Positions 3,301 through 21,652 of a DNA stretch of 64,000 bases are shown one piece after another. Origin of the DNA: Candidatus Moraniibacteriota bacterium (GTDB taxonomy: Bacteria > Patescibacteriota > Minisyncoccia > Moranbacterales > UBA1568); NCBI GenBank assembly GCA_016699875.1, contig CP064989.1, forward strand, positions 10,631 to 74,630, read 5' to 3'. How positions within the stretch are numbered: position 1 is the stretch's first letter; the number at the start of each line of letters is the position of its first letter. Below the pieces are notes generated by a model, which saw nothing but the letters and a program-made list of their open reading frames with translations, did no database searches and was not told the DNA's origin. Both the position numbers and the translations under genes were made by a program.

Positions 3301-5521
3301 CGCGAAAGGCGTCTTTTGTTTCTTGGAGAAGCGAGGCGTCCTCCGGCATCGTCTCGCTTGCGGCATCGGTGTAGTCGAGCAAAAGATAGTATGAAATCGC
3401 ACTGGTTGTATTGCTGAGATAGGCGGTTTCGAGTTTGCCAAGGAGTGCGGAAAGGGTGTGTCGGTCTTTGAGAAGTGCGGGGATAACGAAGACAGCCGAG
3501 GCGGATTCGGGAATTCGCCGCCGAAAATTGAGACGAGGGAGGAATGTCGGCGGGACAACTCCGACAAACAGGCTGTCTATGAGATGTTTCGACGCCTTGT
3601 AGAGAATGGGGAAGGCGATGATCATGAGAAATCGGTAGTGGAGATAAAACACGGCAAAGACGCTCGCCGTGAAAAGAGAGAGTGAGAATATGAATCCGAA
3701 ATAGGCAACACGTAGTGCGGGAAGTTTTCGACGATCGTGATACCAATGCCACCAGGACATGTGCGTGCTGCCGGTCAATCGCTTGAGGAGCGCTGGAAGT
3801 CCGTCATCGACAAGATAAAACCCGACATGGCGCTGCGGGTCGCTGCTGTCTTTGTGTTCCTCGGCGAGGGCGAGGGCGGCTCGCGTGAATGTTTCTTCGG
3901 AAAGTCGGAGCGTCTTTGCTATCGAAGCCGCTTTCTTTCGGTACATCTCTTGGGAAAGTGAGGTCATCTGTTCGTAGATATCGGCAGGGTCTCGAACAAG
4001 GAGTCGGTGAAGGGCATTGGTTTTCCGGAGGAGCGCATTCCACTCGAATTCTCCCAGGAGGGGGAGCGAACGAAGCAAAACGCGAACCCTAGTGGCAAGT
4101 TCGCGTAAACTTTTTGCTTCGGCAGTCCTTGAAAACGATTTTACCGGTCGCTCCTCGTTTTTCTTGGAAGATGTCTCGCGGAATCGAGAGAGGGGATACA
4201 CTTCCTTGGAACGGCATTCTTCAAACGCATCGGCGAAAGCGTCGGCACAGAGAGGCCCGCGCTTTCTCCGAAGCGTATCGAGTAGCGTGTGATAGCGGGA
4301 GGAATTTGGCCCGAATTTATTGAAGTGTTTTCGCGCCAGTGCGCGAGATTTTTCGACATCGGACAGTCGAATGGCGACGGTTGAAAGCTTATCAAGCGAA
4401 AGAAGTCGCAGGATCGGTGAGATCGCTTCTGTCTCGGCGAGTGAGAGTGAAAAAGCGGCGGACTCTTGCCAGTCATTGAGCGTGCTGGCCAGTGTCTCTT
4501 CCGAGAAGCGGAAGGCTGTTTTTTCAACATACCCATTGAGGAGATATGTTGCGGCTATAAGGTTGGCAGGTGCCGTTTCATCGAAAGATACTTTGGAAAG
4601 CGTTGCCTCGAGCGAGCGGAACTCCGCCGCGATAGCCGCATGCTTCTTGAGAAGCCACCGCGTTGCGAGCAGGAGAGTGTCGGGAGGAATTGAAAGCGAA
4701 GACGTACCGGTATCTTCTCGAGATCGATTAAGCCAGGAAGTGTGCTTTTGGTAGGGGGTGTAGAAAGAAGAGAAACGCCGGTGGATTTCCCGCACTTTCC
4801 GCGAGAGATGTCTCTCGATGACACGCTGCCCCCGTCGAAGCGAGAGACTGGAAATAGCGGTTTCCATGTGTTCTAACCACTTTTCAGTAGGGATTTCCGG
4901 ATGATAGTGTTGCCTAAAAAGGCGGGAAAGTAACATAGAGACGAAGAAATACCAGGGGAATACTAAGCAGAGTATAGCAGGAAAGAAGGAAAAATGGCTA
5001 TACTGCGGTCTCGGATGCGAGCCCCTTTCAAAAGCAGGGGATATGGTGTACAGTATGGAACGTTTGATGGGGTTCGGAGAGTTTAAAACGCGAGTTGAGA
5101 GGATATCCGTTTGCATTATCATATGGAGCTGTCGGCATCTCATAAAAAACCTTTTGTAAAGGTATGCGTGCATCGGGATTGTTGCGAGAAGGGATCGGAT
5201 CGTCTCTATGCGAAGCTCTCGCATGAAGTCTCGTCTGATGAGGCGGATATTCAGAAAACCGAGGACTGCTTTCGATTTTGCAAAAAAGGGCCGAATATCG
5301 CCGTTGATGGCAATGTCTTGCACCATATGAATGAGCGAAATGTGGTATCGCGCGTTCGATCTGAGATTCGGCGTCCTTCTTTCAAAAAGGACGGCATTGG
5401 CACGCGCCCCATAGATGAACTCGACGATGTGCTTGACAATATCGGTGTATAGTCTGTTGTTTGTTGTCCGGAGGATGTTCTTGGTATTGTTTTCCATTGA
5501 AACGTGATATACTAATCGCAA
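356..5521 (-). CDS. Cyclic beta-1,2-glucan synthase-like giant membrane protein (GT84-like glycosyltransferase + GH94-like domain)
   Basis: Single 1721-aa ORF. 'ITLDEDAF' (DXD-like) and 'NHRWTRGDWQ' (QxxRW-like) motifs sit between hydrophobic segments. Downstream are 'GHFYNWYHT', 'EYLMPALFLEE' and 'SESGY', which resemble the GH94 / cyclic glucan synthase (NdvB/Cgs) catalytic region. The start is uncertain; an alternative in-frame ATG lies 24 nt downstream. Confidence 0.6.
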   Translation of the reverse strand: MRLVYHVSMENNTKNILRTTNNRLYTDIVKHIVEFIYGARANAVLFERRTPNLRSNARYHISLIHMVQDIAINGDIRPFFAKSKAVLGFLNIRLIRRDFMRELRIETIRSLLATIPMHAYLYKRFFMRCRQLHMIMQTDILSTRVLNSPNPIKRSILYTISPAFERGSHPRPQYSHFSFFPAILCLVFPWYFFVSMLLSRLFRQHYHPEIPTEKWLEHMETAISSLSLRRGQRVIERHLSRKVREIHRRFSSFYTPYQKHTSWLNRSREDTGTSSLSIPPDTLLLATRWLLKKHAAIAAEFRSLEATLSKVSFDETAPANLIAATYLLNGYVEKTAFRFSEETLASTLNDWQESAAFSLSLAETEAISPILRLLSLDKLSTVAIRLSDVEKSRALARKHFNKFGPNSSRYHTLLDTLRRKRGPLCADAFADAFEECRSKEVYPLSRFRETSSKKNEERPVKSFSRTAEAKSLRELATRVRVLLRSLPLLGEFEWNALLRKTNALHRLLVRDPADIYEQMTSLSQEMYRKKAASIAKTLRLSEETFTRAALALAEEHKDSSDPQRHVGFYLVDDGLPALLKRLTGSTHMSWWHWYHDRRKLPALRVAYFGFIFSLSLFTASVFAVFYLHYRFLMIIAFPILYKASKHLIDSLFVGVVPPTFLPRLNFRRRIPESASAVFVIPALLKDRHTLSALLGKLETAYLSNTTSAISYYLLLDYTDAASETMPEDASLLQETKDAFRELNQRYGETDRFAFVIRSRAWSNRQGHWMGWERKRGKLLDFARALRGQATSSPFFISAKRLPHAEFIITLDEDAFITRDFIKDMLGIHSHPLQKPILNTNGELIRGYTFIQPHVKQWFKNRHRFRLPRIFFDEKRFSAYSTTFPEIYQDIFLEGSYAGKGSFHIDAFLSALDGALPTDQILSHDLLEGSLARTAYAADIDVFDEFPKSLRAMLARNHRWTRGDWQILDWLTPTVRDESGRVRKNTLAFVHRFKIADNLLQSLFRPAVFLITVLSWIVGNPHLLLFAWSIFLLDLFLLDMCIDWVRWSYQLLTGKWKHIGYRLKRTATRSFRLCRQAAFECITLPYAALDTTHAIITAISRRFISKKNMLEWVPSAHFENPAGRIPLLFPCITLLIVLLNFHTEGNIHPLFALLLVLWTGIPILVFLLNKPYKQAHDFSRQEEDGLRRDALETWSFFEQTVGPETHFLPPDYIRISPTPKTAEYTSITNIGFFLTSVLVAHRLGFISTKKAYASLERTCTSLERMERYQGHFYNWYHTKTALPAPPLFISSVDSGNLCAALIVTRQWLAHETTTLSVHRTEKGLHSMAQLIRDRIPKTLDMQSFSDIWETVISRIDTLPLNHEESSLFEQLRIIETSLIDIAIPKSLPEEVRDTLALLREQLRDTISEYQYHLSNKQTNVSSNTAGHTDNSHSDLIRKLDSIISEMRFDFLRSNKRSLISIGFHVPTKRLENRFYQTLASEARIANLLALAEGTLSFRGWNKLNRTVLPLRTGPALISWTGTLFEYLMPALFLEEHKDSLVGRSIQTAILMNRYSAKKKNIPAWGLSESGYAELDRGGNFRYKPFGLPALSLSPSADDRSVVSAYGIAMSISSFPRATLKNLAAYATYGGRGVYGYIEAIDFHRSRHGSPVNMFMSHHQGMILAAIGNCLSNRLLSRLFESHPLVQNSLFVLDEGIPPIDKEPFPRPAAPYLHTALSHPRTP

Positions 5522-5551
5522 TCGTTTGTTTTAATGATGGGTAACCGTACA

Positions 5552-5558
5552 AGGAGGG
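5552..5558 (+). promoter_or_regulatory. Shine-Dalgarno-like site (AAGGAGG) for the 5574 CDS. Lies in the 52-bp divergent gap between the giant gene and the small gene.
   Basis: 'caaggagggg' about 15 nt upstream of the ATG at 5574. Confidence 0.4.
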
Positions 5559-5573
5559 GTACACATCGCATGT

Positions 5574-6032
5574 ATGGCGGAAGAACCGGTGACGAATGAC
5601 GAATTGTCCGAAGAGGAGGATGTGCCTATGAAGAGTCTTGGGGATCGTGCGCGAGAGTTTCGAAACAGTCTTCAGAAAAGGTTTGCTGAGGGGAGCGCGT
5701 TGACGCTTGTTTTGTTGTTTGTGCTCGGATTGCTGTTTGGTGCGGCTGCGAAGGCCGTTGCATCGAGAAGTATTTTAATCGGATATTGGGACTATACTAT
5801 TACCCCCAAAGAACGGGCCGCTGTGAATTTGAATGCTCTCCAAGAAGAGCTGGCCGCTCGTCAGAAGGAGGCGGCGAAGCCGCAAAATGCGGAAGATGCG
5901 ACCGCATCGCAGCCGGAGGATTCCGGAGGCGAATCAGTCTCAGGCCAAAGCTCATCGGAAGAAGAGTTGCCGCCATTGCCACCAACGCCAGAACCGCCAG
6001 CTTCTCCATCTCCGGAGGCGGAAAAAGAATAA
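5574..6032 (+). CDS. Hypothetical single-pass membrane protein with an acidic N-terminus and a Pro/Ser/Glu-rich C-terminus
   Basis: 152-aa ORF with RBS. Contains one hydrophobic helix (LTLVLLFVLGLLFGAAA). The C-terminus is low complexity (PPLPPTPEPPASPSPEAEKE). Confidence 0.5.
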   Translation: MAEEPVTNDELSEEEDVPMKSLGDRAREFRNSLQKRFAEGSALTLVLLFVLGLLFGAAAKAVASRSILIGYWDYTITPKERAAVNLNALQEELAARQKEAAKPQNAEDATASQPEDSGGESVSGQSSSEEELPPLPPTPEPPASPSPEAEKE

Positions 6033-6073
6033 GATACGCCTCTTTTTTCAGTTTTCATTAATATCGGATACTA

Positions 6074-7218
6074 TGGATTTTCTGAATAAAAAAGAATCGA
6101 ATGAGAAGGATGATGATCTCGAGTTGTCGTTTCTTGGTGATACCTCAGAGGATGCCGGCGATATGCCGGAGGAAACAGATAAAAATCGCGAACTTACCAA
6201 GAAGGTAAAGAATCTTACGGCGCTTTTGGTAATTGTCGGCGGGCTCTTTGTCGGGAGTCTCTATGTGGATTTCTCGCAATTGTTCACGAAATCCGGATTT
6301 TCTTCGCGGGCACTGAAAACAACCGATGTGGTCACGGCAGCGGGAAAAACCTGGGTTGCCTATGATCAGCCGATTGTGCATGTAACGGTGCTTTCGGAAG
6401 AATCGTGCAAAGAGTGCCAGACCGATGAGGCGGTTGTCTGGCTTCGCCGGATTTTGCCAACCGTATCGGTTGAAATACTCGATGTTTCAAAGGATTCGAA
6501 GGCGAAGGACATGGCAAAAGCCGCCAATGTGACGGCGATACCCGCTTTTATTTTCTCCAAAGAAGTGGCGGAAGTCCCGGTATACGAGCAGGCGCAACAG
6601 CTTTTCACGCCACTCAACGACAAGGACGGCCGATATATGCTCGATACGGCACAGGTTGGTATTCCGGTGGGGAAGTATCTCGAATTGCCTGAGGTGAACG
6701 ATGCGGACATTCAGTCGGGCTCGAAGGATGCGCCGGTTCGTGTGGTGGAGTTTACCGATTTCCAGTGCCCCTACTGCAAAGCGTTCCACGCAACACTCCA
6801 AGATACGCTCAAAGAGTATGGAGACAAAGTACTCTATGTCTACAAGAACTACCCGCTTCCGATTCACGCGCAAGCGGAGAATGCCGCGCTTGCTGGCGAG
6901 TGTGCCAATGAGCAGGGAAAGTTCGTGGAGTATGCGGACAATCTTTTTAACAAACAAGACGAGTGGGGCAAGACAACCGGCGTGCAAAAATTCAAAGACT
7001 ATGCGCGGACACTCAAACTTGATACGACTCAGTTCAACACTTGCTTGGATGACAAGAAGTATCAGGACCAAGTGACTGCCAGTCTTGATGAGGGGAAGAA
7101 ATTTGGCATCAGCGGCACGCCGGGAACCTTTGTGAATGGCACCTTCTTGAATGGCGCCGTTCCTCAAAGCGATCTCAAAGCCGCTATCGACGCGGAGATT
7201 GCCAGTGCTTCGAAGTAG
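6074..7218 (+). CDS. Membrane-anchored thiol:disulfide oxidoreductase with tandem thioredoxin-fold (DsbA-like) domains
   Basis: Start trimmed to 'MDFLNKK'. The upstream Arg-rich extension is an out-of-frame shadow of the 5574 gene. Has an N-terminal TM helix. The first domain carries a CKEC motif and the second a canonical DsbA 'FQCPYCKAF' motif. Confidence 0.7.
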
Positions 7219-7339
7219 CTTGCGGCAGTCGTTTGCCTTTGGCTCTCGGGTCGTCCCGTTGCGGCGGGACGACCCTTGTCTTTTTCCTGTAAGCGAGATA
7301 CACTGAAATTCAGTTTTAGTGCTTCCATTAGGCACTTCC

Positions 7340-7410
7340 GGGCCTGTAGTAAAGTGGTATTACGCAGCATTCGCATTGCTGAGTCGGGAGTTCGATTCTC
7401 CCCAGGTCCA
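7340..7410 (+). tRNA. tRNA-Ala (anticodon CGC)
   Basis: Cloverleaf: acceptor GGGCCTG/CAGGTCC with the G3:U70 Ala identity pair, D-stem GTAA/TTAC, anticodon stem CAGCA/TGCTG with loop TTCGCAT, and T-arm GGGAG-TTCGATT-CTCCC. CCA is not encoded. Confidence 0.85.
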
Positions 7411-7418
7411 CAGCAATT

Positions 7419-8135
7419 ATGAATAGACCATATACAACCCTTTTTTTACTTGTTTCCGTAGACGGTAAGATTTCCACAGGTGATGTGGATGCTATGGATG
7501 TTGATAAGGACTATCCAGAGATTGAAGGTCTCAAAGAAGGTCTGAAACAATACTATGACCTAGAAATGGAGACAGATCTTTTTTCTTTTAATACGGGTCG
7601 GGTATTTGCAAAAGTTGGAGTAAATGAAAAAACGGATGAACCTGAAAAGTTACCAGTCAGTTTTGTTGTTCTAGATAACGAACCACACCTGATCGATAAA
7701 GGAGTTGTCTATCTTGCAAAGAAGACAAAAAACCTTATCATTGCTACTACTAATGAGGACCATCCTGCTTTTGCATTGAAAGATAGTTTTGAAAATATCC
7801 ACGTTCTAAAATATGAGAACAAAATAGATTTTCGCGACTTATTTGAAAAAATCAGAGAACAATTTGGTGCTGAGAGAATGACAATTCAATCAGGCGGTAC
7901 GCTCAATGCTACCTTAGTAAGGGAGGGGCTTATTGACCGAGTGTTATTGGTGGTTGCACCTGCTTTGGTTGGCGGGAAAGACACGGCGACCTTGATGGAC
8001 GGAGAATCTCTTCATAACACAAGCGATCTCGGGAAGATTGTTACATTGGAGTTGGCACAAGCAAAACCATTACAAAACTCATACTTGCTTCTAGAATATA
8101 AGGTGAGACCTAGAGAGTCCGAGCCTGCTCAATAG
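7419..8135 (+). CDS. RibD C-terminal domain-like (dihydrofolate-reductase-like) reductase
   Basis: 'LFLLVSVDGKIS', 'TLMDGESL' and 'LLLEYKV' fit the RibD_C/DHFR-like fold. Starts 9 nt after the tRNA. Markedly AT-rich compared with its surroundings. Confidence 0.6.
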   Translation: MNRPYTTLFLLVSVDGKISTGDVDAMDVDKDYPEIEGLKEGLKQYYDLEMETDLFSFNTGRVFAKVGVNEKTDEPEKLPVSFVVLDNEPHLIDKGVVYLAKKTKNLIIATTNEDHPAFALKDSFENIHVLKYENKIDFRDLFEKIREQFGAERMTIQSGGTLNATLVREGLIDRVLLVVAPALVGGKDTATLMDGESLHNTSDLGKIVTLELAQAKPLQNSYLLLEYKVRPRESEPAQ

Positions 8136-8247
8136 CTATCCCGAGTTCCTGCCAAGCCCGGAGTTCTGCTGTGATAGAGTTCCAACTGTGTAGGAGGTAG
8201 TCCCAAAGATATAAAAAAGATGCCCATACAAGCATCTTTTTTATATC

Positions 8248-8404
8248 TTTGTGGGATATTCTGAATGTAGCGCGGACCCATTTTGAGAAAAATTGCTGAC
8301 GCAATTTTGCCAAATCTCTGAAATCCGCTCGGGCGCGGCGGAAGGAGGGGGTTGGGGGGAGGAATTCCGCCGCGCCCTCGCTCCGAAAAAGTTTGCGCCG
8401 ACAA
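8248..8404. repeat. Left copy of a 157-bp near-perfect inverted repeat pair (partner at 10358-10514). Carries an internal 13-bp-stem hairpin.
   Basis: ORFs 8129-8416(-) and 10358-10597(+) translate to the same 53 residues with one A/V difference, so the DNA copies are reverse complements with one mismatch. Inside is the palindrome gggcgcggcggaa...ttccgccgcgccc with a G-rich loop on this strand (ggagggggttggggggagg). Confidence 0.85.
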
Positions 8405-8449
8405 TTGCAAAAACAAATTCGATTAAATCTTAGCTGAAATAATTTACTT

Positions 8450-9187
8450 GGCTCTAGACTATCAGATTCACTCTGTATAGTCTGGAATTATGTATAACTA
8501 CGCCAAAATATCAACATACAAAATCGGAAAAATAATTTCACACTTTTGCGTTGATGTTACTGCTTCCAAAACCGCTGTCCTGTTGGACATGAATCGCAAT
8601 GCGATCAACCATTGGTATGGTATCTTTCGCAGAGCGATCTATGTTCATCAGACGAAAGAATGCAAGAAAATATTCGGTGAAGCAGAGCTAGATGAGAGTT
8701 ACTTTGGAGCTCGAAGAAAGCGCGGATACCATGGAAAACTCAAGCGAGGACGAGGAACATTCAAGCAACCGGTGTTTGGTATTCTGAAACGTAACGGACG
8801 GGTATACACTGAGATCATACCAAACTGTAAGAAAGCAACACTTTTGCCCATCATCAGGGGAAAAGTCGATCCATCGACGGTTATCTATTCCGATGGTTGG
8901 AGAGGATATGACGGACTGGTTGATGTAGGGTATGACAAACACTTCAGAATGAATCACGGTGAGAATGAGTTTGCCAAGAGAGGCACTGGAATTCACATCA
9001 ACGGGATTGAAAACTTCTGGAGCTTTACCAAACGAAGACTCTCAAAGTTCAATGGGGTCAAAACTCATTTTGAACTCCATCTCAAGGACTGCGAATGGCG
9101 GTATGGGAAGGAAGTCGCGGTACTTGAGACAGAGTTGAAAAGAATAGTTCGACGGTATTTGAATTGTTAAAGTGATAGTCTAGAGCC
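8450..9187 (+). mobile_element. IS1595-family insertion sequence (about 738 bp) with 15-bp perfect terminal inverted repeats GGCTCTAGACTATCA
   Basis: IRL at 8450-8464 and IRR at 9173-9187 (reverse complement). They bracket a single ISXO2-like DDE transposase ORF. No convincing target-site duplication was seen. Confidence 0.75.
8490..9170 (+). CDS. IS1595-family (ISXO2-like) DDE transposase
   Basis: 'DESYFGARRKRGYHGKLKRGRGTFKQPVFGILKRNGRVYTEIIPN', 'IYSDGWRGYDGL', 'HFRMNHGENEFAKRGTGIHINGIENFWSFTKRRL' and 'ELHLKDCEWRY' match the DDE_Tnp_IS1595 domain. No N-terminal zinc ribbon is present. Confidence 0.85.
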   Translation: MYNYAKISTYKIGKIISHFCVDVTASKTAVLLDMNRNAINHWYGIFRRAIYVHQTKECKKIFGEAELDESYFGARRKRGYHGKLKRGRGTFKQPVFGILKRNGRVYTEIIPNCKKATLLPIIRGKVDPSTVIYSDGWRGYDGLVDVGYDKHFRMNHGENEFAKRGTGIHINGIENFWSFTKRRLSKFNGVKTHFELHLKDCEWRYGKEVAVLETELKRIVRRYLNC

Positions 9188-9290
9188 TTTGTTTTTACAA
9201 TCAATCGTTCTTTGAATTTATGAAAAAGAAAAACGCACCAGAGGTCCGAAGACATGGCGCGTTGGTTGGGAAACGAGAGAAGTTGGCGGG

Positions 9291-10049
9291 TTAGGCAGTG
9301 AGGTCGGTGAGGACCTTGCCCCAGTCCTTCCGCTCGTGCACCGTAGTGTCGTGCGTCCCTTTGCCATTGCAGACGTGGCACGGTTTCGAATGCTCGGCGT
9401 CCTCTTTGGCATGGGGGCACTTCCCCTTGGCGTCCAACGGGGTTCGGCAGTAGCCGCAAGCGGTTCCACCGACGCAGTTGTAACACTCGACGCCGAGCGC
9501 CGGATCCTCCACAAACGGCGTGTGCACGAACATGACACGAGCGCCGTTGACCACGAAGTTGGGCTTGAAGCCGTGGTAGTACGCATCGCCGATATGGTCG
9601 ATGGCCGCGCTCATGGCACCCTGATGGTGATTGGTTTCCGTGACCATAGCCACGAACTTGGCGCCACACAGAGTCGCCTTGAGTGCGATGATGAAGCCGT
9701 AGGGCACCTGCTCGCCAGAGTTGAAAACTCCGGGGGCGAGTGTTTTCCTGCTCATCGGCATCATCATGTCCGTCAACACCACCTCGAACGGAAAGGGAAT
9801 TACCGACATGGCTCCCGCCTCGTCGTGAGCCTTCCAGTAAGCGCTCCACCGCTCCTTGTCCTTGGAGTCCGGCATCGTCGGGAAACCTGCCTCGACGAGA
9901 AGACGCTGAACGTTGTCCTTGTCGATCTTCTGCGACATGAGTTCCATCGCCTCGTCGAACGACTTGACGATGGTGAGCTCGTGCGCAGAAAGGGTTTCCT
10001 TGGCCGACTCGCGGTGAGACTGCTTGTCCTCGATAACCAGAATACGCAT
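9291..10049 (-). CDS. GC-rich passenger gene: atypical CheY-like receiver-fold protein with a C-terminal Cys-rich (4x CxxC-like) zinc-ribbon-like region
   Basis: 'MRILVIEDKQ' start is preceded by AAAGGAG 7 nt upstream. Contains 'VVLTDMMMP' (Asp-x-x-M-P phospho-acceptor-like) and 'CYNCVGGTACGYCRTPLDAKGKCPHAKEDAEHSKPCHVCNGKG'. GC is about 58%, against an AT-rich IS next door. Confidence 0.5.
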   Translation of the reverse strand: MRILVIEDKQSHRESAKETLSAHELTIVKSFDEAMELMSQKIDKDNVQRLLVEAGFPTMPDSKDKERWSAYWKAHDEAGAMSVIPFPFEVVLTDMMMPMSRKTLAPGVFNSGEQVPYGFIIALKATLCGAKFVAMVTETNHHQGAMSAAIDHIGDAYYHGFKPNFVVNGARVMFVHTPFVEDPALGVECYNCVGGTACGYCRTPLDAKGKCPHAKEDAEHSKPCHVCNGKGTHDTTVHERKDWGKVLTDLTA

Positions 10050-10095
10050 GGTAATTCTCCTTTCAGTTTGGTTCGTTTGATTTCGCCTACCCACA

Positions 10096-10140
10096 ATGAG
10101 TAGCGCACTAAATACCCAATTTAGACGTCCAATGCGCTAC
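10096..10140. promoter_or_regulatory. Palindromic candidate operator upstream of the GC-rich passenger gene
   Basis: 'gagtagcgcac' ... 'gtgcgctactc'-type inverted repeat (tgagtagcgcact / caatgcgctactcac) in the 5' region of the minus-strand gene. Confidence 0.3.
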
Positions 10141-10357
10141 TCACAGAGTAAGTAAGGAGAATTAACCGCTTCTTTTCTCTCGCTTATCAAAGAGCTATTT
10201 TCGCTAATTTTGGAGGAAGTATACCACCTCAAATTTCGCGTTAAGTGTAGCGTATTGTGTCTATTCTGTCAAGCCCAAACGCTATAATCAAAACTATGCC
10301 CAAAAACCAACAAAAAAAGCCCTTATTTCAAGGACAATTTCATATCTTCTTATTTGG

Positions 10358-10514
10358 TTGTCGGCGCAAACTTTTTCGGAGCGAGGGCGCGGCGGAATTC
10401 CTCCCCCCAACCCCCTCCTTCCGCCGCGCCCGAGCGGATTTCAGAGATTTGGCAAAATTGCGTCAGTAATTTTTCTCAAAATGGGTCCGCGCTACATTCA
10501 GAATATCCCACAAA
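10358..10514. repeat. Right copy of the 157-bp inverted repeat pair. Internal hairpin at about 10385-10431 with a C-rich loop on this strand.
   Basis: Reverse complement of 8248-8404 with one mismatch (gcaatt vs gtaatt). Both ends diverge sharply from the left copy outside the repeat. Confidence 0.85.
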
Positions 10515-10655
10515 ACACAAATTTTGAGGCTTTTCATAGCCTCTTTTTTGTATTGACACCGAGTCTAAAAAGGTGTACAATAATATGTTGTAAGTAAGAG
10601 CTTGCGACTGCCTCGATTCCCGGCATCCAGGGGATTTTCTTTGAAAAAGGAGATG

Positions 10656-11213
10656 GCGATGACGATTCAGTCGATCACGCAAGGCCAAGCAAATCAGAAG
10701 AAGCCCAGATCGCATTACCCGGTGCTTGCTGAAACCAGGCTCCTCAAACCTGTCGGCAAGTCAACTGTTCCAGTCAGGACGAATCCCTTCAATGCAGAAA
10801 AGTTCTACCAGACCGGCACCGGCCTTTACGTCTACGGCATGTTCCCAGGTCGCCTCAACTTGAGTTTTAGGCAGACAGTGGATTCGGCTCCCGAACGTCC
10901 CTACGTGGCTTTGCTCCTCAAGGAAAACGCCTACGACAGGAACATCCGCAAGAAACTGCCGGACATGCACCTGTCCACACTGGAAGACATCGCAGGCCTC
11001 ATTGAAGCACAGCCGGGCGGCAAGCCGGGCTTCCTGCTAAACAACGGCTACGCGAACATCTTCTACGTCGAGGAAAACAGTGAAGTCTTCGTCGTGGATG
11101 TCGGCTGGAAATTCGACCGCTGCGAGTGGGGCGTCGACGGCTGGAAGCTCGGCGAGGCTGGCCGCTGGCGCGTTGACACGCAGGTTCTCTGCCCAAGCAA
11201 CGCGGCGCTCTGA
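10656..11213 (+). CDS. Hypothetical protein (GC-rich, no recognisable domain)
   Basis: Start at 'MAMTIQS' with GGAG 8 nt upstream. About 55% GC. Followed by a hairpin plus T-run. Confidence 0.5.
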   Translation, partial: AMTIQSITQGQANQKKPRSHYPVLAETRLLKPVGKSTVPVRTNPFNAEKFYQTGTGLYVYGMFPGRLNLSFRQTVDSAPERPYVALLLKENAYDRNIRKKLPDMHLSTLEDIAGLIEAQPGGKPGFLLNNGYANIFYVEENSEVFVVDVGWKFDRCEWGVDGWKLGEAGRWRVDTQVLCPSNAAL

Positions 11214-11253
11214 CACCTTTTTAGTTCATTTGAACAAAAGACTTTTGTCTATT

Positions 11254-11300
11254 AAACCCTTGGAAGCTACAGTGTAACAACCAAGGGTTTTTTGTCTTTT
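11254..11300 (+). terminator. Rho-independent terminator candidate
   Basis: aaacccttgg-(17 nt loop)-ccaagggttt followed by ttttgtcttttttt. Confidence 0.5.
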
Positions 11301-11331
11301 TTTGTCTTGCCGAAAATAGGTACCAGAGAAG

Positions 11332-11544
11332 TCAGAACAAAATCTTTCCAATTGCGAAAAAAGCGATAATGGCCCAGAGAACATTCAGCACGCCTGGCTG
11401 ATATGTCTTCTTATGGAAGGAGATGGCGACGATACCGAGTGCGCCTGTTCCATTGAGAAGCTGGTACACAATACTCGTTGGTGTCAGGAATGAGAAACTT
11501 ATCAGGGCATAGGCGAGAGAATGATGGAGACTGTTCCGTACCAA
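11332..11544 (-). CDS. Small hydrophobic membrane protein, possibly one gene interrupted by a frameshift with an upstream 24-codon ORF
   Basis: The 70-aa ORF (TTG start) is almost entirely hydrophobic. An ATG ORF 'MNKDRLIALFGWYGTVSIILSPMP*' begins at 11579 in another frame and overlaps it. Confidence 0.3.
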   Translation of the reverse strand: MVRNSLHHSLAYALISFSFLTPTSIVYQLLNGTGALGIVAISFHKKTYQPGVLNVLWAIIAFFAIGKILF

Positions 11545-11579
11545 CCGAAAAGCGCAATGAGTCTATCTTTATTCATAGA

Positions 11580-11984
11580 TCAATCAATGAGATCTTTTGA
11601 TTTCAGATCATCGAAGATGAGTTGATCCACGGGCGATATCTCATTTCGTCTCGAGGAGTCAAACCAATCCATTTGTTCCACTTCAGCACTGGGCGCAAGC
11701 TTCCCTGAGTATTTTCCTTGGTAGCAAGTCATTCTTACGAGAGTTCCTTCCGGTTTTCCGTGAGCTTGTGCCTCAAAGGTTCCGTAGTGCTTGAGAGTTT
11801 CGGGAATGATGTCGATCTGCAGCTCCTCTTTCATTTCTCGCATCAGAGCTTCTTGATCGCTTTCATTATTCTCGCGTTTTCCTCCCGGAATGTACCAAGC
11901 GTCTTTTCCATAACTACGCGTCTCCAAGACTCTCCGGTTAAGAATTTCAATAAAGGCCAGTTTGTCGATGTATGTTGTTTCCAT
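11580..11984 (-). CDS. NUDIX hydrolase
   Basis: Nudix box 'GGKRENNESDQEALMREMKEELQI' (GX5EX7REUXEEXGU). Confidence 0.85.
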   Translation of the reverse strand: METTYIDKLAFIEILNRRVLETRSYGKDAWYIPGGKRENNESDQEALMREMKEELQIDIIPETLKHYGTFEAQAHGKPEGTLVRMTCYQGKYSGKLAPSAEVEQMDWFDSSRRNEISPVDQLIFDDLKSKDLID

Positions 11985-12017
11985 ATATATTGCATCTAAT
12001 GAGGAATGAGGGATGCT

Positions 12018-13721
12018 TTAAGAATCACTCCTCTCAGTTTCCGAGAGGAGAGCGTCTTTGTTTGCATCTTCAGAGAAAGTGACGGAATCTTTGGCGAAGC
12101 CGCTTGCTTGCATGTCTATGTTGTGTGAATCGGCTCCGGAGATCGTGAGACAGTCTTTGCGGACGAGAGGGCACTTGGTGTTTATGAACGAGAGATTGGC
12201 GCCATCCTTGATATCGAAGACCGTGCCCTTGGTGGGGACGGCAGTAACTCTGTCAAAAGTGATATATTCCGCCTTTTCTATTTGAGCGCCCCATTTCGAG
12301 GAAATTTTGACGTTCTTGAAAACAACGTCAATAATCGGCTGTTCCACGAGCCCGTTGATTTCTATTGAGCGATCGGTTTTCCCGACAGACATATCTTCGA
12401 TGGCGATGTTGCGAAAGAGGGGGATAGCGCCGCGGCCTTTGATAAAGGAGTTTTCATAGGCGGTTGTGAGTTGTACCGCAGCTATGGAGGCGTAGTCGAT
12501 ATTCACTATATTGGCGTGGATATTTTCTACGATTCCGCCGCGGCCCTTTGAGGACTTGATGCGGAACCCATACTGAACCATATTTGCGGAAAGGTTTTCA
12601 ATGAAAATATTGCGCACATCGCCGGACATCTCGCTCCCGATGGCGACAGCGGCATGCGCTTCGAGTATGGAATTATTTCTGATTAAGACATTTTCCGTTG
12701 GTTCTCGAACACGGAGACCGTCACTATTTCTTCCTGACTTGAGGACAATGGCATCATCGCCGGTACTGAAAACGTTATCCTCAATAAGGACATTTATTGA
12801 AGAGTCGAGTGCTACGCCATCGGTGCTTGGTCCGGCACTGGTCTCAATATGAACACCGCGAACAATGATATGTGTACTGTAGAGCGGATGAATCGTCCAC
12901 ATGGGACCGTTTTGTATGGTGACGCCCTCGACGAGTACGCGGTGGCAATTCATAAATTCGATGAATGCCGGGCGAAGAGCGTCTGCGACGGTTCCGAAAA
13001 CGCGCTCGGACACGGGTACATCGTCGTCGCCCATTCGGTAGAGATTTTTGATAGACTTGTTCCAGTCACGCATCGCTTCCCACCAAACGGCGCCTTGTCC
13101 ATCGAGCGTGCCTTCACCCGTAATGGCAACATTGAAAGCATTGGCAGTATAGATAGGAGCGGAATAGTTGTAATATTCAATGCCCTCGAAGCGAGAGAAA
13201 ACGACCGGCAGATACTCTTCAAAGTTCGTGCTGAAAAGAATGGTCGATCCCTTTTCGAGGTGAAGATTGATATTGCTTTTGAGATGTATCGCTCCGGTGA
13301 ACCAGGTGCCTTTGGGAACTTGGACGGTCCCGCCTCCGGTACTGGCGCAGTCCTCTATCGCTTTCCGAAACGCTTCAGTATCGGAGGTGATGCCATCACC
13401 CTTCGCACCGTAGTCGGCGATGGAACAAACTCTGTCCGGAAAACCCGTTTCCTCAATACTGAGCGAGCCACCGGAAAGTGTCTGAAGTGTGGCAATCGAT
13501 GTTGCCAGCGGAATGGATTGCGATATATCCGGGAATTCCCGAGGGATTTCCGGTTCGGTCGGCAGTGTTTCTTCGGGAGAAGCTTCTCTCGTAAAATCCT
13601 GTGATGATGAGAATATTGTTCGTATCCGGTCTCCGAACAGTTTCCAACCTCCAAGGATAACTCCGACAATGCAGAGAGCAAAAAGGAGGAGAAGAATGGC
13701 TGTTCGACGCTGCTGAATCAT
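12018..13721 (-). CDS. Membrane-anchored right-handed beta-helix glycoside hydrolase (GH28 / pectate-lyase-3 family)
   Basis: N-terminal TM helix. 'DYGAKGDGITSDTEAFRKAIEDCASTGGGTVQVPKGTWFTGAIHLKSNINLHL' is the hallmark of the Pectate_lyase_3/GH28 beta-helix. Paralogous to 23682-25217. Confidence 0.75.
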   Translation of the reverse strand: MIQQRRTAILLLLFALCIVGVILGGWKLFGDRIRTIFSSSQDFTREASPEETLPTEPEIPREFPDISQSIPLATSIATLQTLSGGSLSIEETGFPDRVCSIADYGAKGDGITSDTEAFRKAIEDCASTGGGTVQVPKGTWFTGAIHLKSNINLHLEKGSTILFSTNFEEYLPVVFSRFEGIEYYNYSAPIYTANAFNVAITGEGTLDGQGAVWWEAMRDWNKSIKNLYRMGDDDVPVSERVFGTVADALRPAFIEFMNCHRVLVEGVTIQNGPMWTIHPLYSTHIIVRGVHIETSAGPSTDGVALDSSINVLIEDNVFSTGDDAIVLKSGRNSDGLRVREPTENVLIRNNSILEAHAAVAIGSEMSGDVRNIFIENLSANMVQYGFRIKSSKGRGGIVENIHANIVNIDYASIAAVQLTTAYENSFIKGRGAIPLFRNIAIEDMSVGKTDRSIEINGLVEQPIIDVVFKNVKISSKWGAQIEKAEYITFDRVTAVPTKGTVFDIKDGANLSFINTKCPLVRKDCLTISGADSHNIDMQASGFAKDSVTFSEDANKDALLSETERSDS

Positions 13722-13737
13722 GGCGGACGAGAGTTAT

Positions 13738-15597
13738 TTATTCCGAGGATGGGTTTCCTAAAAGGAGTTGCTCGGCGGGAATCACTTTCACAAAATTTTC
13801 CGGGCGATTGCCGATAACGAACGTCTTTGAGGTCTCTTCGGTTGCATATGCTTTTTTGAAATCAATAGGATCGCTGCCGGGGTGAGAAAGCTTTGTGGTT
13901 CTGGATCGACGCCCGGACGAGACTACGACATAGTCAAAATGGAGATCTCGCAAATCTTTCTGACTGAGTCCGGTGCGGCACTCCCCGATAAAGACGGCGC
14001 AGACAGCCCCCTTATCCGCCCATATGGAGATTTCGCGGGGATTTGGCAGGTGGTTGAGAAAGTCGGCGGCTTCCCAACTTCCATCGCCCATATCCTTCAA
14101 ATTGACGAAATAGGGTTCCGGAAGAAGAGATGATGTGTAGGCGAAATAGTACGGCTTGACGGAGAAAAGGCTGATGAATGAAAGAAGTGCCACCGCTGAT
14201 ATTGCGGCAAGGGAGGTGTGGGAATGCTTACGAAGGCGTTCGGACTTGAGAAGAAAAGCAATGCCAAGAGCAGCTAGAATAAAAGCGAAAGGGAAGATGG
14301 TTATTTGGTAGCGTATGGTGGCAACTACGTGATTGACGGTTGACGCGACGTAGTAGAGAAGGATAAAGAGCGTGATAAAGAAAGCTATTTTTGTTTCTTG
14401 TGACGTTATATACTTTTTTGTTGAGCCAAAAACAAGCGCTACAACCAGAGTAATAAGCGCAAACGGCGAAATGCCGAACATAAGACTATATAAATCGGCA
14501 ACGACAGTGTCGGTAAAAATATACAAGCGTGAGCTGTCTCCTCCGGAGCCTTTCGGAGAGGCAAGCGAGGCATCGGTATTGAAGAGACTCATGCCGTTGA
14601 GCGTATTCAGTAAGACGAAAAGAATAGCAGCAATAAAGAATATGAAAACCATTCGAATAAAAAGTATTCGATATCGTGAGAGGGTGTGCAAAATAGCGGC
14701 AGTAAATTTGTTCTTGAATAAAACAGCGTCGAGCGCAATAAGCGCAATGATGCTTGCAAAAAGCGGCCAGGTGCTCTCGAAAGCCTTGCTAAGGAATGTC
14801 CCTTCGAAGACCATTTCCGGATGCTTCCATGTCGCAGGGAAAAGCGCAAAGAATGTCGCCAGAGAGATGCTCACCAAGATGAGGTAATGAAGAGCTGATT
14901 GTCTTATGTAGGTTCGAAGATCCGGTTTTTCCTGAGAGAGGATGTACTCCAAAAAGGGAAGTGCGAAGAAGAATATATAGAGAATATTGGCGACGTATTT
15001 GGTAAGAAGAGAGAGTCCGAGGAGCACTCCGCTTGCATAGAGGTACTTTTTTTCAGCGCTTTTCTGGAAAACAAAATAGCTCAGTGTCGAGAGCGGAAGA
15101 AATATCCAGAGAAGCGAGTCGGGGTTGATAATGAGCGAGATTCCGAGGAGGATCGGTGAGAATCCTATAAAAACAAAGGCGATGAGAGCGGTCGTTTCAT
15201 CGAAGAGTTTTTTAAGAAGAATGAAAAAGAATGGGAGAGAGAGGAGACAAAAAAGAAAAATGGGCAGACGGAAGAAGAAGTTGATATCATTTATGGCTTG
15301 AAACTCTTCATCGGTTTTTACGTTATCGCGCAGACCCTTGTAGGGAAGGGGGTCTATTGTAAGAAGTCCGGCGCCGGAGAGGATTGCGGTCGTGATGCCG
15401 GGTTTGTCATTGATATTGGTGGATCGCCATTTTCCTTCGGCGATCGCCTTCCAAAACTTCGGTGTTCGCTGGTATGTCCAGTAGGGCTCATCAACTGCCG
15501 AATACGACTCGAGACGCGACAGTCCGAGCGCTAAGTTTATGGCAAGTACGGCAACGATAACAAGCGGCGCGAAGCACTTTCGGCAATTGAGTTTCAT
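13738..15597 (-). CDS. GT-C fold membrane glycosyltransferase (GT39/GT83, ArnT/PMT-like) with canonical DE motif
   Basis: More than 10 predicted TM helices. First loop reads 'SAVDEPYWTY'. Has a C-terminal soluble domain. Diverges from the neighbouring paralog at 15722. Confidence 0.7.
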   Translation of the reverse strand: MKLNCRKCFAPLVIVAVLAINLALGLSRLESYSAVDEPYWTYQRTPKFWKAIAEGKWRSTNINDKPGITTAILSGAGLLTIDPLPYKGLRDNVKTDEEFQAINDINFFFRLPIFLFCLLSLPFFFILLKKLFDETTALIAFVFIGFSPILLGISLIINPDSLLWIFLPLSTLSYFVFQKSAEKKYLYASGVLLGLSLLTKYVANILYIFFFALPFLEYILSQEKPDLRTYIRQSALHYLILVSISLATFFALFPATWKHPEMVFEGTFLSKAFESTWPLFASIIALIALDAVLFKNKFTAAILHTLSRYRILFIRMVFIFFIAAILFVLLNTLNGMSLFNTDASLASPKGSGGDSSRLYIFTDTVVADLYSLMFGISPFALITLVVALVFGSTKKYITSQETKIAFFITLFILLYYVASTVNHVVATIRYQITIFPFAFILAALGIAFLLKSERLRKHSHTSLAAISAVALLSFISLFSVKPYYFAYTSSLLPEPYFVNLKDMGDGSWEAADFLNHLPNPREISIWADKGAVCAVFIGECRTGLSQKDLRDLHFDYVVVSSGRRSRTTKLSHPGSDPIDFKKAYATEETSKTFVIGNRPENFVKVIPAEQLLLGNPSSE

Positions 15598-15721
15598 GAA
15601 AAAATCGAGAAATTACACATTTGGCAATACCCGAATGATACAAGAAATTCCCTCGGCTTGCAAAAATTTCAGGCTTTCAGAGCATCTTTCGGCTTTACGA
15701 ACGACGGAGGAGAATGATAGA

Positions 15722-17512: not shown

Positions 17513-17521
17513 ATCGAGAAT

Positions 17522-19174: not shown

Positions 19175-19274
19175 GCGGTTATTGTCATCGCTGCTGATAC
19201 AGAGAGTTGAATTTGATATTCGCCAAACGGTACATGGGTAACGCAGGTCATTCACCACGAGCCTTTCTCTGACT

Positions 19275-20852: not shown

Positions 20853-20903
20853 CGAAATTCCAAGCGTCAAGCGTATTGTCTCTATCTCATTTAGCGAGCA
20901 GTT

Positions 20904-21602
20904 ATGAAGAAGCAGTCAAACATGATCTTTGCCGCAGATGATTTCGGCATTAGTCAAAAAGCGAATGAGCGAATCTTGAAGCTTGCCGAGGCGGGAGTGC
21001 TTGATCGTGTAGCCGTTATGACAAAGGGAGGTGCAACCAAAGAATCTTTGGATCGTCTCGCGAGATCGGCCGTAAAAATCGATCTTCATGCCGAGCTTCG
21101 CGATGATATCGACCCCAATAGAAAACTTGCTGCGGGTGCATTCCGAAGAACTCTCACATTTATGAAGAACCTCTTTTTCGGAGAGAACCGACCGGCTCAG
21201 GTTGCTGCTCGCTGGGAAGCGCAGATTCTCGATTTCCATTCCATGTTTGGAAAGTATCCCGACGGATTGAACTCGCATGAACACACTCATTTCTTCCCGC
21301 CATACTTCAAGCATGCTCTCTATTTAGCGCGGAAATATCACATCTCGTTTATTCGATTTGGGAGAGAATCATTTCCGGGAGGCGCAGCGGTTTCATATAT
21401 TCTCAATACGCTTCGGCTGGTAGATAAGAGGTCATTCTCTCGAGCGAACATTGCCTCATCGGATATAATGGTCAGTTTCGATTGGATAAGATCACTCGAT
21501 GTTCTCAAAGGATATCCGAAAGAAAAATCCATTGAAATATTGTTTCACCCCGAGCGTGATGAAGAGATGATTTTTTTGGAAGAAAATTTTCTTGAGAAGT
21601 GA
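20904..21602 (+). CDS. YdjC/ChbG-family carbohydrate deacetylase
   Basis: 'IFAADDFGIS' near the N-terminus, and 'LNSHEHTHFFP' as the His-rich metal-site motif of the YdjC family. Confidence 0.75.
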   Translation: MKKQSNMIFAADDFGISQKANERILKLAEAGVLDRVAVMTKGGATKESLDRLARSAVKIDLHAELRDDIDPNRKLAAGAFRRTLTFMKNLFFGENRPAQVAARWEAQILDFHSMFGKYPDGLNSHEHTHFFPPYFKHALYLARKYHISFIRFGRESFPGGAAVSYILNTLRLVDKRSFSRANIASSDIMVSFDWIRSLDVLKGYPKEKSIEILFHPERDEEMIFLEENFLEK

Positions 21603-21652
21603 AAATTTTCGCAATGATGAGAAGTTGAACGAGTTATTTTTTTGAAAGTGAT

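Follow-up and report, generated by a model that had tools for sequence, protein, structure and literature searches.

A Patescibacterial family of atypical receiver-like proteins with helical and putative zinc-knuckle insertions, described from a Moraniibacteriota member

We describe a gene on the minus strand of a 64,000-nucleotide stretch of contig CP064989.1 from Candidatus Moraniibacteriota bacterium (referred to throughout as the window) that encodes a 252-residue atypical stand-alone receiver (REC) protein; the coordinates of the gene and of all other features are collected in Table 1. The predicted structure shows a core with the (βα)5 receiver fold, into which a helical segment and a DnaJ-type cysteine-rich module have been inserted. 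The protein belongs to a large family that keeps the phospho-aspartate machinery of receivers, has lost their otherwise universal lysine, has gained a histidine pair, and at about half of the loci is paired with a divergent gene for a TrmB-type regulator. The reading we prefer, with confidence that is about evenly balanced, is that of a CheY-like switch, most likely phosphorylated at D94, with a TrmB-type regulator as its ancestral partner or controller. The family is a variation on the well-known receiver domain and not a new kind of system, and the window copy adds no evidence of a defence or mobile function. The product matches IPK84_00120, a hypothetical protein of a Candidatus Moraniibacteriota metagenome-assembled genome (MAG) with a 1.09-Mb contig, at 100% identity; exact-sequence look-ups with it and with the transposase encoded next to it gave no returns.

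Predicted fold, active-site residues and insertions

An AlphaFold2 (AF2) model of the window protein, made with a 62-sequence alignment, reached a predicted local distance difference test score (pLDDT) of 92.7 and a predicted template modelling (TM) score of 0.86. Its elements run in the order β1 (residues 2-6), α1, β2 (24-28), α2, two extra helices (44-53 and 65-81), β3 (90-94), a small hairpin loop, α3 (118-127), β4 (132-137), α4, β5 (170-176), a long β-hairpin (179-188 and 232-241) with the Cys-rich segment at its tip, and α5 (243-251). When the model was searched against the PDB with Foldseek, the top matches were receiver domains (CKI1, RpfC, CheB, DrrD, PhoB and others) at a probability of ~0.99 and E-values of 3e-3 to 5e-2, which are weak because of the insertions. 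P0108, a natural minimal member of 157 aa without the two large inserts, was modelled with a pLDDT of 92.2, and its top 50 PDB matches were nearly all REC domains, with E-values reaching 3.2e-5, a probability of 1.00 and TM scores by target of 0.6-0.73. The receiver-like fold proposed in the initial annotation, which had named structure prediction as the check, is thereby borne out.

Sequence profiles lead to the same fold. Pfam Response_reg (PF00072) matches 34 of the 62 relatives at E<=0.01 (best 5.2e-6), and one distant homologue reaches 31.4 bits. With hhalign, residues 1-40 align to the PhoB receiver at a probability of 84%, the E7-D8 segment lying opposite PhoB E9-D10. In the corresponding alignment to CheY, FEVVLTDMMMP stands opposite YGFVISDWNMP and D94 opposite D57.

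Conservation was counted in an alignment of 238 family members. The acidic-pocket residue D8 is present in 225 of them, the putative phospho-acceptor D94 in 235 and P98 in 232, and position 137 at the end of β4 is Thr in 222 and Ser in 14. Of the response-regulator hallmarks first recognised in the sequence, the N-terminus, the D94 motif and the threonine stand, while the expected lysine at the end of β5 does not. A second set of residues is near-invariant and specific to the family: H23 (228/238), H141 and H142 (230/238 each), D151 (218/238), K241 (229/238) and W243 (233/238); H176 is moderately conserved (179/238). The loop insertion between β3 and α3, which we call the lid, occurs in the AF2 model of the minimal member as well. 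Members of a deeper branch (P0211, P0213, P0226, P0239 and P0241) carry an extra N-terminal domain of ~130-200 aa, itself degenerate receiver- or flavodoxin-like in appearance. They keep T-D-L-N-H-H and K-D-W, which underlines these motifs as the signature of the family.

The insertion of roughly 40 residues that had been noted between the acidic pocket and the phospho-acceptor Asp proved to be a helical insert of 50 residues, whose length is bimodal (present or absent) across the 238 relatives. The second insertion is the Cys/His-rich module, which does exist as annotated and looks DnaJ-like by its CxxC census and by matches to PF00684, although its description needs two corrections. It had been given four CxxC pairs; the window copy has three and one CxH (C189-x2-C192, C198-x2-C201, C211-P-H213 and C224-x2-C227), and its knuckles CYNCVGGT, CGYCRTPL, C-P-H and CHVCNGKG include one full CxxCxGxG where DnaJ has four. 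It had also been taken for a C-terminal tail, whereas it is an insertion followed by the conserved last helix R-K241-D-W243-G-x-V-L; this helix (R-K-D-W-G-x-V-L-x-D-L) is present also in members without the Cys module.

Across the family, the segment holds no CxxC in 102 members, one in 6, two in 41, three in 23 and four in 66; at least one CxxCxGxG occurs in 110 of the 238 and at least two in 59. The Pfam family DnaJ_CXXCXGXG (PF00684) matches 2 of the 62 relatives (best E 8.6e-5), the window protein not being one of them, and the AF2 pLDDT in the Cys-rich region is 75-87. In the DnaJ cysteine-rich domain the pairing is nested, the outer repeats holding one zinc and the inner repeats the other. 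By analogy, the steps of zero, two and four CxxC on a β-hairpin would fit such a nested two-zinc arrangement. Both inserts are found in 81 members, the helical insert alone in 72, the zinc module alone in 49 and neither in 36. The two thus vary independently, which places the core function in the receiver-like body.

Two further matches were set aside as noise. The best PDB sequence match of the family profile is the zinc-binding region of the phage antitermination protein Q (7ubj), aligned to window residues 205-248 at E 0.18; the alignment (CRDCHGTGRAVD...KLWGRVV against CkkCkGT...rkdWGkvL) is not significant. The Pfam match of the window protein to T6SS_FHA_C (18.7 bits) lies below the cutoff.

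Distribution, TrmB pairing and proposed mechanism

A word-indexed search returned 139 homologues at E<=1e-3, and an exhaustive profile search at least 1,178 clusters (50% identity representatives) at the same threshold, 844 of them at E<=1e-10. Nearly all clusters belong to Patescibacteria (the candidate phyla radiation, CPR), to which the family is essentially restricted. Homologues that carry a name are called hypothetical or 'CheY-like' and come from Moranbacteria, Falkowbacteria, Komeilibacteria, Uhrbacteria, Parcubacteria and similar groups; one sits on a contig attributed to a Diapherotrites archaeon. Two MAGs carrying the label Gammaproteobacteria (loci L017 and L021 in our numbering) hold distant homologues, whose neighbours gave no information. 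No Pfam, NCBIfam or PDB entry captured the family in our profile and structure database searches, and literature searches found no description of it, in keeping with the first impression of an uncharacterised function.

For the analysis of gene neighbourhoods, 35 loci (~28 of them distinct) were fetched and all neighbouring open reading frames (ORFs) were clustered by BLAST. A single recurrent neighbour emerged, a TrmB-family protein of roughly 240-300 aa, which scores 41-64 bits against Pfam TrmB (PF01978; cutoff 25.6) and is called TrmB in precomputed annotations as well. In a tblastn census, the TrmB gene lay directly upstream, on the opposite strand and within ~1.1 kb, at 13 of the ~28 distinct loci (listed in Table 1). 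In L014, which we treat as one locus with L024, it is convergent and downstream, and in L009 it lies 2.6 kb upstream. For most homologues the surroundings are either TrmB or genes of ribosomal, replication and cell-wall function. The initial description as a single-gene module does not hold for the family, in which about half of the loci pair the gene with a divergent TrmB gene; the window copy is an orphan. A tblastn search of the window with 14 of the TrmB neighbours (E<=0.75) found no TrmB gene, and the divergent gene upstream is a Moranbacteria-specific hypothetical of 186 aa. Pfam scans of essentially all long ORFs in the 64 kb found no HisKA, HATPase_c or Hpt domain, in agreement with the earlier statement that no cognate kinase is nearby.

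Together these features suggest a molecular switch without an output domain of its own. In the mechanism we propose, the α4-β5-α5 face with its His-His and Lys-Asp-Trp residues, together with the zinc-knuckle arm, would relay a change in the D94 pocket to a partner protein. In the topology of the model, the His-His and Lys-Asp-Trp motifs flank this face and the optional zinc-knuckle arm emerges from it. The change itself would most likely be phosphorylation, for which a distant kinase or else a small phosphodonor could be the source, and K241 or H176 would make up for the missing lysine. A TrmB-type regulator would be the ancestral partner or controller, and the two would form a two-polypeptide 'split response regulator'. 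The window copy, whose 64 kb contain neither a TrmB nor a kinase gene, would be an orphan of this arrangement.

Several observations weigh against this proposal. The window protein scores 17.1 bits against Response_reg, below the gathering threshold of 30.2, and the match covers residues 3-58 only. The canonical Lys-Pro at the end of β5 is missing: the strand reads VMFVH176-T177-P178-F179, no lysine occurs at either candidate position across the family, and phosphorylation competence is not assured since this residue is absent. Near-invariant H23, H141 and H142 fall outside classical receiver chemistry, and metal or ligand binding, or catalysis, is conceivable for them; the spatial roles given above to H141, H142 and K241, like the zinc geometry, are read from the topology of the model. 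At no locus with annotated neighbours does a histidine kinase gene stand beside the family gene. The nearest relatives of the window protein (57-63% identity; L003, L004, L005, L034 and L035) are also without an adjacent TrmB gene, the gene being a lone unit among housekeeping genes such as those for NusB, RNase III, RF1, L25, TopA, DprA and GreA. Where a gene and a transcription factor gene are divergent, moreover, the arrangement often means that the factor regulates its neighbour rather than that the two proteins interact.

As regards the missing lysine, K241 may stand in for it. It lies ~65 residues past the end of β5 in the window protein and 9 residues past it in short forms of the family. 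In the model of the minimal member, its equivalent forms a β-bridge with the Phe that follows the β5 Pro, which would bring a lysine back to the top of β5.

The lost lysine, the several near-invariant histidines gained, the conserved lid loop over the Asp pocket in the AF2 model and the absence of a kinase gene beside the gene at any annotated locus also speak for a phosphorylation-independent pseudo-receiver, which would sense a metal, the redox state or a small ligand and be read by a partner such as TrmB. In such a protein the modified pocket (D8, D94, lid, H141-H142 and H176), the Cys knuckles or both would be the site of metal binding or of a reaction with oxidants; in some other proteins, redox activity is a property of DnaJ-type CxxC knuckles. 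We regard this as possible but doubtful. Conservation of D8, D94-x3-P98 and T137 stands at 93-99%, as in a functional phosphorylation site, for which a pure pseudo-receiver would have no need, and the zinc module cannot be the core sensor, because it is absent from 102 of the 238 members. A more far-reaching proposal, which we consider unlikely, would make the protein a kinase-independent, CPR-specific, receiver-derived sensor of a metal, redox or small-molecule cue, perceived by the remodelled Asp pocket (lid loop, His-His and relocated Lys) and the optional zinc-knuckle arm, that controls the archaeal-type TrmB by direct binding, the orphan subfamily being additionally gated by a conserved leader RNA (described below) that sequesters the ribosome-binding site and travels with the gene. 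If true, the sensor and TrmB would together form a regulator of two polypeptides, taking the place of classical two-component systems in these reduced genomes.

It is also conceivable, though quite improbable, that the protein is an enzyme on a receiver scaffold, such as a phosphatase or phosphotransferase, with D94 as nucleophile, H141, H142 and K241 as catalytic residues and TrmB merely regulating its expression. The near-invariance of H141, H142, D151, K241 and W243 over 238 sequences is more typical of catalysis than of a docking surface, and the arrangement of a divergent transcription factor and target gene would suit this reading; yet all confident structural neighbours are signalling receivers, no profile of any enzyme family matches, and no conserved substrate-related genes lie nearby.

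We retain the phosphorylated CheY-like switch as the preferred reading. CPR bacteria make up a large share of bacterial diversity and have tiny genomes, and their gene regulation is little understood. A large CPR-restricted, receiver-derived family with the features set out above is a testable candidate for a lineage-specific signalling route. It is also a clear target for Pfam-style curation, being a REC subfamily in its own right into which a DnaJ-type zinc module has been inserted.

Transcription unit, leader RNA and genomic surroundings

The gene has its own promoter-like site, a structured leader and a downstream terminator-like hairpin (a 9-bp GC-rich stem followed by UUUUUCUUUUU, z = -2.6) and is therefore monocistronic, a self-contained unit. 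It had been singled out for its AAAGGAG placed 7 nt before ATG among neighbours with weak ribosome-binding sites, and a census of Shine-Dalgarno (SD) sequences agrees: an AAGGAG-type site precedes 2 of 27 window genes, the REC gene and its divergent 186-aa neighbour (start 10659). Most window genes have no recognisable SD, and several carry a TATAAT-like box ~8-12 nt before the start codon (e.g. 37878, 39771, 43645-44937), a pattern suggesting that leaderless or non-SD initiation is common in this Moranbacteria genome.

The leader is ~190 nt long, and the fold of 10050-10240 has a free energy of -60.4 kcal/mol (z = -4.7 against shuffled controls). The palindrome noticed upstream of the gene is a perfect 11-nt inverted repeat (10097-10107 and 10133-10143) and forms the core of a larger structure, a hairpin of ~17 bp (10092-10148) around which an outer stem pairs GGUUAAUUCUCCUU (10152-10165) with the SD region, whose nucleotides have a mean unpaired probability of 0.21. 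With its strong SD held in so stable a structure, the gene is probably subject to gated translation. A homologous leader precedes the Falkowbacteria homologue L003 (7868-8003 of that locus; protein identity 62-64%, depending on the alignment); it shares GTGAnTAGCGCATTGGA...TGGGTATnTAnTGC and likewise sequesters the SD, through a different anti-SD; three base pairs have changed on both sides (compensatory changes). A search of 30 sources (other loci) with a leader covariance model brought up no additional copy, so that conservation of the leader rests on two independent sequences, and Rfam holds no known RNA family for either the leader or the 157-nt repeat described below. We flag this translation-gating leader as a candidate cis-regulatory RNA, a lead and not a result.

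The gene is GC-rich, as had been remarked, with a GC content of 0.592 and a third-position GC content (GC3) of 0.794, the highest among ~54 window ORFs; the whole window has a GC content of 0.48 and a mean GC3 of 0.53 over 46 ATG-started ORFs of at least 200 aa. The excess extends to the family, whose gene exceeds the remainder of the locus in GC content at 16 of 19 loci and by at least 0.05 at 12 of them (0.540 against 0.368 in L020, 0.603 against 0.467 in L004 and 0.579 against 0.435 in L003). In 5 of 6 pairs compared, the family gene is also GC-richer than its own TrmB neighbour, by margins from 0.027 (L007) to 0.175 (L020: 0.540 vs 0.365); the exception is L033, whose adjacent TrmB gene lay outside the comparison. 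GC and GC3 well above those of the surroundings were seen in the REC homologues of L003, L004, L014, L016, L019, L020, L032 and L034 as well as in the window. The codon bias of a highly expressed gene was ruled out as the source, as ribosomal-protein and EF-P genes of the same loci are not GC3-rich. CPR lineages may have repeatedly exchanged the gene laterally, together with its leader, or the mRNA may be under selection. The 186-aa divergent neighbour, conserved in Moranbacteria, is likewise GC3-rich (0.716) and SD-led, which calls for caution in taking GC content alone as 'foreign'. Of the foreign composition first proposed, what remains is that the composition is unusual; as proof of a recent import it fails, the GC3 excess being family-wide and shared by this neighbour.

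A mobile-type neighbour is indeed adjacent, as initially described. The transposase of the IS1595-family insertion sequence (IS) directly downstream matches NCBIfam transpos_IS1595 (1e-43) and Pfam DDE_Tnp_IS1595 (1.6e-26) and, at 226 aa, appears intact. The terminal repeats of the element (8450-8471 and 9166-9187) enclose the transposase gene only, leaving the REC gene outside. A second inverted repeat of 14 nt (8404-8417 and 9188-9201), which may be an extension of the IS ends, surrounds the IS and is separated from it by a 32-nt spacer at the left but not at the right, and reading by eye found no 8-bp direct repeat (target duplication) around the IS. Further out, the two arms of a 157-nt inverted repeat, a sequence found only twice in the window, bracket a segment of 1,953 bp that holds the IS1595 element and the REC gene. 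Their outer ends show no target-site duplication by eye, the left flank (...TTTATATC) and the right flank (ACACAAAT...) being different. The left arm ends exactly at the extended IS end (8404), which would fit a rearrangement associated with the IS better than a transposon whose ends are 157 nt long. A hairpin follows each arm when read outward, and the plus-strand right arm folds together with its hairpin at z = -3.6. The repeat could be a duplicated small-RNA gene, a scar of IS-mediated rearrangement or a substrate for inversion of the segment. To the left of the region, a tRNA-Ala gene (7340-7411) and a low-GC RibD_C gene (GC 0.396) give a compositional mosaic.

One homologue, that of L009 (59% identical), lies in a ~12-kb block (3461-15707 of that locus) of mostly small unannotated ORFs. 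The block runs from two tRNA-Ser genes to a large serine recombinase gene beside tRNA-Arg, has TrmB at one end and has the look of an integrated element.

The cargo and defence roles proposed for the gene can be weighed together. On this view, the IS1595 transposase would move the 157-nt-repeat segment with the gene as its cargo, and the gene would serve on its own in defence or as an addiction-type module. The position of the IS, the 99% identical repeat around IS and gene, the mosaic composition to the left, a gene GC3 far above that of the host in most genomes and the tRNA-flanked L009 block ending with a recombinase gene all count towards such a role, which we nevertheless hold to be very unlikely. 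The evidence speaks against an IS passenger or a part of a composite transposon: the gene lies outside the IS repeats with its own promoter-like site, leader and terminator, the 157-nt arms lack a target-site duplication, and no long inverted repeats flank six close homologues. A defence or phage origin finds no support in database scans. The best match in PADLOC-DB (E 0.033, 12 bits) is not meaningful, PHROGs gave N-terminal receiver-like noise only, and no relative of the family turned up in IMG/VR viral contigs. Most homologues stand among housekeeping genes or beside TrmB, and the window neighbours (glycosyltransferases, glycoside hydrolase family 28 (GH28), DsbA-like, RibD_C and NUDIX proteins) form no defence-island context. 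In all, the gene sits in a rearranged, IS-touched spot, with IS1595 as a neighbour and not a vehicle, and there is no evidence of a cargo or defence gene.

That the plus-strand ORF 9336-10103 (255 aa) might be the real gene and the minus-strand reading spurious can be dismissed almost entirely: the ORF is long and similar antisense ORFs occur at 10 other loci, but it is the codon-aligned reverse frame of the REC gene and stays open because the sense gene contains none of the codons TTA, CTA and TCA, which are stops on the opposite strand (~3.4 expected from window codon usage), and the ORFs at the other loci are a by-product of GC3-rich codon usage. The check suggested in the initial annotation, with no conservation expected for this ORF, was run on 9 pairwise codon alignments with homologues and rules it out. 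In the sense frame, conservation is lowest at the third codon position (0.28-0.55, compared with 0.62-0.81 at positions 1 and 2), and amino-acid identity is higher in the sense frame (0.49-0.65) than in the antisense frame (0.18-0.45) in 9 of 9 comparisons, which leaves coding constraint in the minus-strand frame only; the sense product, moreover, folds confidently as a REC domain.

Beyond the region of the REC gene, the long ORFs of the window match Pfam families of glycosyltransferases, GH28 enzymes, ABC transporters, Mur/FtsW genes and similar. The divergent neighbour IPK84_00125 (10659-11213, plus strand; 184-186 aa) is a conserved hypothetical with 138 homologues, of which all the named ones come from Moranbacteria or Moraniibacteriota. 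Its family has no Pfam domain but several invariant Trp, and carries the motif VLCPGNAAL at the C-terminus. Apart from the REC gene, it alone among the nearby genes is both SD-led and GC3-rich; its promoter, TTGACA-17-TACAAT (10553-10581), comes close to the consensus. Positions 13738-23272 hold five paralogous genes for PMT-type (dolichyl-phosphate-mannose-like) glycosyltransferases with shared internal DNA repeats. This cluster is flanked by two GH28 pectinase-like genes in opposite orientation (12018-13721 and 23682-25217), which are linked by a 101-nt inverted repeat of 73% identity (12877-12977 and 24360-24460). On the minus strand, positions 356-5521 encode a 1,721-aa protein with a putative C-terminal glucoamylase domain and a weak match to glycosyltransferase family 2 (GT2), unusually large for a genome of ~1.1 Mb.

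Table 1. Features of the REC gene, its product and its surroundings in the window, with the loci that carry a divergent TrmB gene
Feature	Position	Strand	Basis
Coding sequence (CDS) of the 252-aa atypical stand-alone receiver (REC-like) protein	9291..10049	-	ORF list and translation; stop codon 9291-9293
β1-α1-β2-α2 with acidic pocket E7-D8 and family-conserved H12 and H23	residues 1-37; 9939..10049	-	Pfam partial match, hhalign
Lineage-variable helical insertion, α2-β3	residues 38-87; 9789..9938	-	AF2 helices 44-53 and 65-81
β3 with putative phospho-acceptor D94 (FEVVLTDMMMP; D-x3-P)	residues 88-98; 9756..9788	-	hhalign to CheY
Conserved loop insertion ('lid'), β3-α3, ending P116-Y117-G118	residues 99-117; 9699..9755	-	AF2 short β-hairpin, conservation
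T-E-T-N-H-H: β4 Thr, then His-His in the β4-α4 loop	residues 137-142; 9624..9641	-	Conservation; β4 ends at 137 (AF2)
β5 (ARVMFVH-T-PF), His176/Thr177 at the canonical Lys-Pro site	residues 169-179; 9513..9545	-	AF2 strand 170-176
Predicted DnaJ-type zinc-knuckle module (CYNC, CGYC, C-P-H, CHVCNGKG) at the tip of the long β-hairpin, β5-α5	residues 189-231; 9357..9485	-	Cys positions, AF2 strands 179-188/232-241
Last helix α5, K-D-W-G-K-V-L-T-D-L-T-A, with near-invariant K241 and W243	residues 241-252; 9294..9329	-	Conservation; AF2 helix 243-251
Shine-Dalgarno AAAGGAG, 7 nt before ATG	10057..10063	-	Read from sequence
Structured 5' leader; anti-SD 10152-10165 pairs with SD region	10050..10165	-	RNA fold
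Promoter-like TTGACA-17-TACACT	10244..10272	-	Consensus scan, 10/12 matches; pattern match only
Terminator-like hairpin and U-run just past the stop codon	9222..9263	-	RNA fold of 9205-9293
IS1595-family element; transposase CDS 8490-9170; 22-nt terminal inverted repeats	8450..9187	+	NCBIfam, Pfam
Left arm of 157-nt inverted repeat	8248..8404		Repeat search; 99% identical arms
Right arm of 157-nt inverted repeat	10358..10514		Repeat search
Loci with divergent upstream TrmB	L007, L012, L013, L015, L018, L019, L020, L023, L025, L026, L029, L031, L032	opposite strand	tblastn

Comparison with known systems

The closest known relatives are the single-domain receivers CheY, Spo0F and DivK (PF00072), with which the family has in common the (βα)5 fold, the acidic pair at the end of β1, Asp-x3-Pro at β3, Thr at the end of β4 and an aromatic residue at β5. 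Neither CheY-type proteins nor the family have an output domain, and signalling would therefore run through protein-protein contacts. Unlike these receivers, the family has H-T-P-F in place of the β5-end Lys-Pro, an extra helical insert, a lid loop and a zinc-knuckle hairpin, as well as its own near-invariant H23, H141-H142 and K241-D-W243. The window protein stays below the Pfam gathering score, the family is restricted to CPR, and no kinase stands beside the gene at annotated loci.

Atypical or pseudo-receivers (aspartate-less receivers, ChxR, HP1043, FrzS and the KaiA N-domain) are similar in having a receiver fold that departs from the canonical quintet and may operate without a kinase. 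They typically lose the Asp or the acidic pocket, whereas the family keeps Asp, pocket and Thr and loses the Lys only.

The central cysteine-rich domain of DnaJ/Hsp40 (PF00684) has four CxxCxGxG repeats that bind two zinc ions on a V-shaped hairpin. Relatives of the window protein with four CxxC, often CxxCxGxG, on an extended β-hairpin resemble it, and two of them match PF00684. In contrast to DnaJ, the family has neither a J domain nor the DnaJ C-terminal domains, and its module is inserted in a receiver domain; in the window copy the third knuckle is degenerate (C-P-H), and zinc binding is a prediction.

In the IS1595 subgroups with passenger genes (ISPna2+ and ISNwi1+ in ISfinder), the passengers lie inside the IS terminal repeats. 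The window shares with them a DDE transposase gene beside an unrelated gene, but here the repeats enclose the transposase only, and the REC gene lies outside with its own promoter-like site and terminator.

The closest published parallel comes from archaea, where REC-only genes are often adjacent to and divergent from winged helix-turn-helix (wHTH) genes of the ArsR type, an interaction between the products being unproven, and where REC fused to the Cys-rich, double-zinc-ribbon-like output domain TackOD1 has been described (Galperin et al. 2018, PMC5847659). Common to both are a stand-alone REC divergent from a winged-helix gene, the combination of REC with multiple CxxC and the proposal of signalling by protein interaction. 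The family differs in that its partner is TrmB and not ArsR, its hosts are CPR bacteria, its Cys module lies within the REC domain instead of being appended to it, and the canonical Lys, kept in the archaeal proteins as Lys109, is missing. By analogy with what has been proposed for archaeal REC-only genes beside wHTH genes, the family protein and TrmB may likewise have worked as a split response regulator.

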